Position numbers and translations under genes: made by a program. Below the pieces are notes generated by a model, which made no database searches, was not told where the DNA came from, and saw nothing but the letters and a program-made list of their open reading frames with translations. A stretch of DNA of 32,000 bases from Halalkalibacterium halodurans. Its GTDB lineage: Bacteria; Bacillota; Bacilli; Bacillales; Bacillaceae_D. Of the stretch, positions 5,511-5,686 are shown in pieces. Where the stretch lies: assembly GCF_004376175.1 (NCBI RefSeq), contig NZ_SNUY01000003.1, positions 16,823 through 48,822 on the forward strand, given 5' to 3'. Position 1 is the first letter of the stretch; each line of letters starts with the position of its first letter.

Positions 5511-5686
5511 TCCTTGACCTTGTTTGCGGTCGTGGTGTTGTGTACGTTGGCGGATGGGAAAAATAAAGCCCTATGTGGGACTTCATCCGCACACCGAGCG
5601 TACCACGACCGACCTTTTCTAAGTTCTCGCTGGCTGGGTCCCTGAACCCAACCAGCAAGAACTAAGAAAAGGCACAAGGTCAAGGA
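5511..5686. other. Highly structured GC-rich module (closed three-way junction) inside the 3' non-coding end of the IS256 element; function unknown
   Basis: Hand-checked pairings:
- P1: 5511-5523 with 5674-5686, 13 bp perfect.
- Arm A: 5527-5536 with 5602-5611 (10 bp perfect), then 5540-5543 with 5591-5594, then 5550-5556 with 5584-5590.
- Arm B: 5613-5627 with 5658-5672 (14 of 15), then 5629-5639 with 5646-5656 (10 of 11).

Junction linkers are only 1-3 nt. No SD-preceded ORF is present. Confidence 0.5.

Follow-up and report, generated by a model that had tools for sequence, protein, structure and literature searches.

Insertion sequences (ISs) of the IS256 family contribute strongly to genome change among Gram-positive bacteria, and their regulation is only partly understood. 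Their transposition is thought to proceed via double-stranded circles without a long-lived single-strand stage, a view for which work on ISCth4 is cited, and a promoter formed at the circle junction is known for IS256. Structured RNAs from non-coding IS ends that are linked to a transposase are represented by IS10 RNA-OUT, IS200 art200, the 3' antisense RNA of IS256, omega RNA, and bridge RNA. Stable structures situated 3' of a gene are also known as retroregulators or mRNA-stabilising hairpins, e.g., lambda sib, the Bacillus thuringiensis cry "positive retroregulator", and repetitive extragenic palindromic (REP) elements. The subject of this analysis is a 32,000-nt stretch of the Halalkalibacterium halodurans contig NZ_SNUY01000003.1 (positions 16,823 to 48,822; the whole stretch is referred to as the window), in which an IS256-family IS carries a structured module (5511-5686) behind its transposase gene. 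Together with its conserved flanks, this module is shown to be an integral, inherited 3' non-coding part of one IS256-family clade that occurs in at least ten Bacillaceae genera.

Among the named elements in annotated plasmids, ISEfm2 is closest to the window IS (64% transposase identity). Like ISEfm2/IS256, the window IS possesses a left inverted repeat identical to that of ISEfm2 over 28 nt, a single transposase open reading frame (ORF), an 8-bp target duplication, and a 5' hairpin of the type that masks the ribosome-binding site. ISEfm2 comprises 1325 bp with a short, unstructured 3' end of 53 nt after the stop codon, whereas the window IS comprises 1622 bp with 316 nt from stop to end, of which approximately 200 nt belong to the structured unit. 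The IS is composed as follows.

4185-5806, + strand: complete IS256-family IS of 1622 bp with a pair of inverted repeats (IRs) and an 8-bp target duplication
4185-4211, + strand: left inverted repeat (IRL), identical to the ISEfm2 IRL, containing TAAAAT
4226-4312, + strand: hairpin of the 5' untranslated region (UTR), pairing the Shine-Dalgarno sequence AAGAGG and the start codon; fold z = -6.2
4303-5490, + strand: transposase gene, 395 aa, Mutator/IS256 family, single ORF
approximately 5505-5707, + strand: full conserved unit of about 200 nt, composed of CCGCCA, the three-way junction, CAAG, a small hairpin, and GGC(T)
5708-5779, + strand: fast-evolving spacer between the unit and the right inverted repeat, 43-70% identical between divergent pairs
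5780-5806, + strand: right inverted repeat (IRR), carrying an outward-facing TTGACA

The IRs of 27-28 nt are 82% complementary, and the duplication AAAATAAT is found on both sides of the IS at 4177-4184 and 5807-5814. The ORF at 4303-5490 matches the Pfam family Transposase_mut (PF00872) with E=1e-120 over residues 9-370, and 3961 transposase homologues were obtained at E<=1e-50, of which the named ones are designated as IS256 family. The nearest cluster representative of the window transposase is a protein of Caldifermentibacillus hisashii with 97% identity; the exact protein is deposited under H. halodurans with four accessions, and a further contig (L001) holds an identical 1622-bp copy of the IS. 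Mutator-type DDE transposase, IRs, and 8-bp duplication place the carrier in the IS256 family. Its length of 1622 bp and its 316-nt 3' end lie outside of the range given by ISfinder for this family, approximately 1.2-1.5 kb with short non-coding ends. Compared to ISEfm2 and to the module-less relative L021 (1344 bp), the window IS is about 300 bp longer. An earlier note on this DNA, made from the letters alone, had thus correctly judged the element to be longer than about 1.3 kb and had correctly measured 118 nt for the left non-coding end. Its value of 316 nt from the transposase stop to the right IR applies to the outer end of the IRR, but the inner edge is reached after 289 nt.

The structure itself was paired by hand in the earlier note as a compact three-way junction, and the region folds as described there. 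The minimum free energy (MFE) fold of 5511-5686 as RNA is a three-way junction of 68 pairs with an energy of -95.5 kcal/mol (z = -11.1), which was equalled by 0 of 200 shuffles. The 13-bp closing helix was drawn exactly, and the 1-3 unpaired nt expected at the junction correspond to computed junction strands of 3, 1, and 1 nt. As DNA the module folds with -56.2 kcal/mol (z = -11.0), and the RNA of the complementary strand with -102.5 kcal/mol (z = -12.0). The parts of the unit are the following.

5507-5509 (GCC) with 5704-5706 (GGC), + strand: outer helix P0, 3 bp, present in the RNAalifold consensus and in the single-sequence fold
5511-5523, + strand: helix 1 (closing helix), 5' strand, pairing with 5674-5686, 13/13 perfect
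5527-5611, + strand: arm A, composed of helix 2 and further inner helices, an asymmetric A-rich loop that is conserved, and a small hairpin that varies
5527-5537 with 5601-5611, + strand: helix 2, 11 bp, within arm A
5558-5566, + strand: conserved unpaired A-rich stretch GAAAAAUAA, 83% identical among divergent representatives
5613-5672, + strand: arm B, a hairpin of 24 pairs with 1-nt internal loops
5674-5686, + strand: helix 1, 3' strand, pairing with 5511-5523
5690-5703, + strand: small 3' hairpin GCAGC-N4-GCUGU with invariant stem and variable loop, present in the RNAalifold consensus and in the single fold

With a G+C content of 0.53-0.56, the module is, as noted earlier, richer in G+C than its flanks (0.23-0.45). 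A motif GGTCRWGG / CCWYGACC is present in both helix 1 and helix 2. The earlier statements that the module is neither a tRNA nor shaped like a terminator agree with the outcome of ARAGORN, which finds no tRNA in the module, and of a terminator scan, which calls no terminator-like site within the window module on either strand. Its non-coding nature is in line with the existence of variants of 175-179 nt that differ by indels of 1-3 nt; a small ORF is excluded on these grounds, and a 118-aa ORF on the - strand is without a Pfam match. Two further ideas on the structure were abandoned. A derivation of arm B from a duplicated 5' UTR hairpin is not significant in a local alignment (98 of 500 shuffles reach the score), and an alternative pairing of the 5' flank CCGCCATCC with GGCGGATGG is not maintained in the variant L009.

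Sequence comparison reveals that the structure is maintained by selection. In pairs of elements with transposases that are at most 89% identical, four-fold degenerate sites of the transposase gene are saturated (31-50% identical), while the module interior is 68-86% identical and the spacer between module and IRR is 43-70% identical. Conservation is distributed unevenly over the module, as given by the identities among eight divergent representatives.

Helix 1: 96%
Helix 2: 97%
Unpaired A-rich loop: 83%
Arm B, paired positions: 79%
Distal arm A, paired positions: 76%
Other unpaired positions: 63%

In an alignment of 25 variants (A5), standard pairs occur in 91% of the cells, compared to about 40% if the partners are slid by 1-3 columns, and eleven pairs show changes on both sides, a number reached in 0 of 500 shuffles. 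The test for covariation across homologues that had been proposed in the earlier note therefore turned out positive, including helices 1 and 2: pair 10/182 of helix 1, a U-A, is replaced by A-U in L052 and by C-G in L053, pair 21/107 of helix 2 changes from U-A to C-G in L053, and several pairs of arm B carry compensatory changes. Since L052 and L053 were retrieved via their protein and not via a DNA pattern, they are free of an ascertainment bias from exact helix-1 ends. Conservation and covariation together show that the base-pairing and much of the sequence of the unit are kept by purifying selection. Self-correction of a palindrome is not sufficient as an explanation, because unpaired parts are conserved, too. 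In its conservation, this covariation-supported unit of about 200 nt is thus on a par with the transposase gene.

The limits of 5511-5686 proposed at first are exact for the junction itself, but the conserved unit is larger and extends from approximately 5505 to 5707. Conservation begins at CCGCCA (5505-5510) and runs past helix 1 via CAAG-GCAGC-N4-GCUGU-GGC(U) to about 5707. These flanks, CCGCCA on one side and CAAGCAGC..GCTGTGGCT on the other, are invariant or near-invariant in 16 sequences. Due to their invariance, the P0 pairs provide no covariation for or against this helix. The stem of the small 3' hairpin is broken in the L003 type. For the MFE fold of the extended region a z of -8.4 was obtained. 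The spacer at 5708-5779 folds no better than shuffles; it holds a widely conserved GGCTAAC, which is present in module-less relatives, too.

Copies of the module were sought in one genome per species of 185,579 species and in the metagenomes of the Joint Genome Institute (JGI) with the pattern TCCTTGACCTTG-N135-165-CAAGGTCAAGGA, which requires exact helix-1 halves, so that diverged solitary copies could escape. The species genomes yielded 14 stretches, 12 of which are homologous modules and 2 unrelated. The homologous ones belong to Gracilibacillus, Compostibacillus, Aliibacillus (four copies), Pseudogracilibacillus, Pallidibacillus, Lentibacillus salinarum, Cerasibacillus, and a Bacillota metagenome-assembled genome (MAG). 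In the JGI metagenomes, 9 matches were found in 8 stretches, composed of 8 homologous modules with 7 distinct sequences and 1 unrelated palindrome. All 19 homologous copies (12 from genomes, 7 from metagenomes) are located directly 3' of a transposase gene and inside the IS, as judged by tblastn and by blastn against the window IS. Hence the question whether the module always travels with this IS is answered in the affirmative for 19 of 19 copies; a solitary copy was not among these homologous matches, for which exact helix-1 halves were required. A nhmmer profile of the 25 variants, run against 242 kb including the rest of the window, detected only IS-linked copies, and no second copy was found elsewhere in the window. 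Nor was the module found in the plasmid and phage collections.

The matches in Devosia, in Gallionella, and in one metagenome were considered as homologues and rejected, as they have only the 12-nt ends in common with the module and represent chance palindromes. Two of these unrelated palindromes with TCCTTGACCTTG / CAAGGTCAAGGA ends, L036:1209-1391 of a Gallionella MAG and L041:965-1137, are strongly palindromic and were taken as chance.

Through their transposases, further module-bearing elements were identified, in each of which the module lies directly after the stop codon. Their transposases show the following identities to the window transposase.

Caldifermentibacillus hisashii: 97%
Metagenomic type L003: 89%
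Virgibacillus dokdonensis, six copies: 86%
Metagenomic type L052: 86%
Metagenomic type L049: 83%
Lentibacillus cibarius: 80%

The six identical copies of V. dokdonensis comprise 1593 bp each and are each flanked by a different 8-bp duplication, which demonstrates that the module transposes as part of the IS. In all variants the module starts 8-23 nt past the transposase stop codon. Two deviating copies were encountered. In Pseudogracilibacillus (L031), the transposase stop codon TAA is changed to GAA, by which the ORF is prolonged by 9 codons and ends at a TGA in helix 1. An internally deleted IS copy (L040:753-1392), in which positions 1-150 are joined to approximately 1106-1618, has kept both ends and the module; it represents a non-autonomous derivative resembling a miniature inverted-repeat transposable element (MITE) and is located 5.4 kb from a full copy.

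In a neighbour-joining tree of the transposases all module-bearers fall into one clade, together with two module-less elements that are sisters to bearers. The module-less P0004/L051 is placed next to the bearer P0003/L052, and the module-less P0010/L015 next to the bearer P0011/L053. This pattern indicates at least two losses or, alternatively, exchanges of 3' ends. L. salinarum holds both module-bearing and module-less forms. A comparison of L053 of L. cibarius with the module-less L015 of L. salinarum reveals an indel of about 230 nt, which starts at the stop codon and ends some 40 nt beyond helix 1; these limits show that no mobile unit is bounded by the 13-bp repeats. The module-less P0010 is found on 21 contigs and is thus multi-copy, and the module-less L021 possesses a target duplication. 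Because module-less sister lineages are multi-copy as well, the unit is not required for transposition. It is an accessory, clade-specific feature. The earlier proposal of a functional structure linked to the IS accordingly holds with regard to linkage, covariation, conservation, and the missing Rfam match, but the structure is absent from some close IS lineages.

A closer look at these lineages shows what takes the place of the module. In the next lineage out, the Piscibacillus type with 74-75% identity, an unrelated long hairpin directly follows the stop codon (L048:1308-1412 with z = -10.4 and L046:1358-1465 with z = -4.7). The outer stems of the L048 and L046 hairpins differ between variants and yet remain paired; a homology of these hairpins to the module was considered and dropped, since it was not detected by a profile search. 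The module-less L051 (86% transposase identity) possesses a 9-bp hairpin at the module site. On the - strand (L051:1359-1380) this is a canonical intrinsic terminator with a 9-bp stem followed by AUUUUUC, facing inward and antisense. L021 (67% identity) shows a short unstructured 3' end, as does ISEfm2. The site just past the stop codon is thus a repeated host of strong structures in this IS group.

Rfam 15 contains no family that matches the module at the gathering threshold, and at E<=10 only sub-threshold look-alikes of miRNA hairpins on arm B were reported, so that the Rfam comparison suggested earlier leaves the module outside of every Rfam family. Likewise, a literature search returned no report in which a member of the IS256 family is said to carry a structured element at its 3' end.

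Apart from the 3' end, the IS shows candidate regulatory features of the known type. The 5' UTR hairpin, which occurs in ISEfm2 in the same arrangement as at 4226-4312 of the window, looks like the classic block on translation of read-through transcripts. An outward TTGACA is located in the IRR at 5795-5800 and TAAAAT, a candidate -10 box, in the IRL at 4193-4198. Joined in a circle, both would be expected to form a junction promoter as in IS256.

With respect to transcription around the module, neither a canonical + strand terminator nor a conserved promoter was found between the transposase stop and the module. No conserved promoter is located next to the module on either strand, and no + strand terminator was detected at the module apart from a weak, non-conserved site at 5692-5707. 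An independent small RNA gene was considered on the basis of a promoter-like TTGATA-16-TAGAAT (5458-5485), but was discarded, as this motif is restricted to the window and has disappeared from L002, L003, and further variants. On the - strand, a promoter-like ATGACA-17-GATTAT at 5430-5402, with TG before the -10 box, is situated inside the transposase gene, with an orientation leading away from the module. It is retained in 8 of 10 divergent relatives; a 3' antisense RNA might start from it, but its conservation might also stem from the coding sequence alone. According to a passage in PMC10266640, a sigma-B-dependent 3' antisense RNA has been reported for staphylococcal IS256.

The covariation is symmetric and thus does not distinguish between the strands. 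G-U pairs, counted as alignment cells and not as independent events, amount to 86 on the + strand compared to 29 on the - strand in arm A, and to 25 compared to 116 in arm B. An assignment of the strand by the asymmetry of G-U pairs and A-C mismatches was therefore dropped, because the two arms give opposite directions. The shuffled backgrounds of both strands are equal. Read on the - strand, GAAAAAUAA becomes UUAUUUUUC, a U-run directly after the small covarying hairpin 5567-5582. The combination of this small hairpin and UUUAUUUUU in arm A was called as a - strand terminator in L024 only, but not in the window, L052, and L053. Complementarity of the module to the IS ends or to the 5' UTR is limited to 7-mers, which corresponds to the chance level.

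As no terminator or promoter was found between the stop codon and the module, the latter presumably forms at least a part of the 3' UTR of the transposase mRNA. We favour, with a probability of roughly 0.4, the reading that the module is a cis-acting structured 3' UTR by which the transposase message is stabilised, processed, or insulated at its 3' end. Owing to its great stability, the structure would act in cis to define the end of this message and to protect it against 3'-to-5' exonucleases; alternatively, it might serve as a controlled entry site for an RNase. Either way, the module would set the transposase dosage in the manner of a retroregulator, and it may in addition limit transcription running across the right inverted repeat. 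Such a generic role fits, because the module occupies a fixed position shortly after the stop codon, unrelated hairpins are found there, and the module is dispensable; it would explain both the unrelated strong hairpins at the same site in related ISs and the loss of the module. With the described retroregulators the module shares a stable structure just 3' of the gene, within the (presumed) transcript and with no terminator intervening, as well as the lack of an own promoter. Their role is generic, so that unrelated hairpins could fill it. The module differs by its larger size (the 68-pair junction and a hairpin), by its near-invariant core, and by its location inside a transposable element, and a role in stability is putative here.

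Several observations weigh against this reading. Helices 1 and 2 are near-invariant, whereas a simple stabiliser should covary freely, and their near-invariance hints at a possible sequence-specific recognition. A three-way junction of 68 pairs far exceeds the needs of 3' end protection, and a 3' structure is missing altogether from close relatives. In 23 of 23 variants, the RNA of the - strand folds more stably than that of the + strand, with a difference of 0.9-16.7 kcal/mol, and the G-U asymmetries of the two arms point to opposite strands. Finally, the structure lacks a conserved U-tract behind it on the + strand and is thus not a canonical terminator.

The more stable - strand fold leads to the most serious alternative, which we nevertheless regard as unlikely, namely that the - strand, which is antisense to the transposase gene, carries the functional element. 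An RNA with the arm-B hairpin, ending at the small hairpin and UUUAUUUUU in arm A, would arise by transcription that enters from the right IS end or starts at an unrecognised promoter. This RNA might, as an insulator or terminator, shield the transposase gene against antisense transcription reading in, or, as a 3' antisense RNA, trigger processing of the transposase mRNA, for which the staphylococcal IS256 RNA cited in PMC10266640 would be a precedent. Besides the fold (z = -12.0 compared to -11.1), arm B speaks for this strand, as it forms a nearly continuous helix of 28 pairs there by the use of G-U pairs (116 versus 25 cells). In addition, the sole large conserved unpaired stretch of the module is the - strand U-run after the small covarying hairpin, a terminator is called by the scan in L024, and the module-less L051 has its canonical - strand terminator at the same place. 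On the other hand, no conserved - strand promoter is located between the right IR and the module, the stem of the putative terminator measures just 3-5 bp and is left uncalled in the window, L052, and L053, and the + strand G-U pairs of arm A turn into A-C mismatches on the - strand (86 versus 29 cells). The small 3' hairpin contains an invariant G-U on the + strand, and the L046 and L048 hairpins are without a U-run on either strand. If, instead, the 96-97% identity of helices 1 and 2 in the face of saturated synonymous sites is given the greatest weight, the module could be an RNA or folded-DNA ligand of the transposase or of a host factor and act in transposition itself, e.g., by tethering nascent transposase in cis, by aiding synapsis, or by controlling circle formation. 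The repeated GGTCRWGG / CCWYGACC motif and the conservation of the A-rich loop and of the flanks CCGCCA and CAAGCAGC..GCTGTGGCT would be expected of such a ligand. It is rendered rather improbable by the multi-copy state of module-less sisters (P0010 on 21 contigs), by the target duplication of L021, by the absence of complementarity to the IS ends beyond chance 7-mers, and by the absence of a conserved promoter for a separate RNA; moreover, in an unsystematic reading, the C-terminal tails of transposases with and without the module are not obviously different. The module resembles the IS-encoded RNAs in being structured, transposase-linked, and placed in a non-coding IS end. It differs from them in that a promoter is not recognisable, complementarity to the ribosome-binding region and to the IS ends stays at the chance level, Rfam does not contain it, and sister lineages dispense with it. 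The longest word shared with or complementary to the IS ends, 7 nt, does not suggest a guide-type RNA, and the partner is a transposase of the DDE Mutator type, in place of the TnpB of omega RNA or the IS110 recombinase of bridge RNA. A resemblance to these two RNAs, as raised in the earlier note, receives no support from the search for IS-end complementarity and for a conserved own promoter.

A role of the structure as DNA, either as a single-strand fold during copy-out/paste-in replication or as a cruciform, e.g., as a priming or pausing site, is rated lower again. With z = -11.0, the module folds no less exceptionally as DNA than as RNA, and G-T-type pairs are nearly even between the strands (111 versus 145 cells), unlike the prediction for an RNA from one strand; moreover, many variants contain TAGCGT, which resembles the CS-6 box of ssoA single-strand origins. 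However, the double-stranded circles assumed for the IS256 family offer no long-lived single-strand stage, and a cruciform needs pairing in both strands, whereas the same 111 and 145 cells are mismatched on one strand or the other. An ssoA-like single-strand origin or single-strand promoter was specifically rejected, as TAGCGT is located in a stem or internal loop instead of a terminal loop, the window carries GAGCGT, and the TTGACC of helix 1 is not followed by a -10 element. Least probable appears the option, raised in the earlier note, of a nested palindromic passenger of the MITE/REP type that landed once in an ancestral IS and is kept without benefit, with compensatory changes arising by template-switch "self-correction". 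The module does share a compact GC-rich palindrome with 13-bp terminal inverted repeats with the MITE/REP repeats of Firmicutes, its G+C content exceeds that of the host IS, and its distribution on the transposase tree is patchy. In contrast to such repeats, the 19 homologous matches from two very large collections include 0 stand-alone copies, the indel by which the module is gained or lost is not bounded by the 13-bp repeats, and these repeats are without a recognisable target duplication, the flanks sharing only CA on each side. Self-correction leaves the conservation of the unpaired A-rich loop and of the flanks unexplained, and the module evolves much slower than the adjacent spacer.

The surroundings of the IS are rich in IS elements. 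Two TnpB/IS605-OrfB genes are located at 277-1449 (+ strand) and 2164-2952 (- strand) in opposite orientation, the second of which is truncated; together they account for a 131-nt inverted repeat at 709-839 / 2444-2574. A second IS at 7332-8832 is composed of 31-nt inverted repeats around a 400-aa DDE_Tnp_1 (IS4/IS5-type) transposase encoded at 7473-8675. The sole Rfam match in the window is an S-adenosylmethionine (SAM) riboswitch at 11018-11127 (97.7 bits), upstream of a run of + strand ORFs that starts at 11305. Furthermore, in a cell-wall hydrolase gene with a peptidoglycan-binding domain (19226-20299), 81 nt (27 codons) are perfectly duplicated in tandem at 19631-19792.

Coming back to the favoured reading of a cis-acting 3' UTR, a module that tunes the stability of the transposase mRNA or insulates the IS would add a 3'-end layer to the self-regulation of ISs, and the unrelated hairpins at the same site in relatives suggest that such a layer is recurring. 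Should the module instead bind the transposase, the Mutator superfamily would join the systems in which transposition is assisted by an RNA or a structure, and for DDE transposons of the Mutator/IS256 type an RNA-assisted mechanism would thereby be described for the first time.

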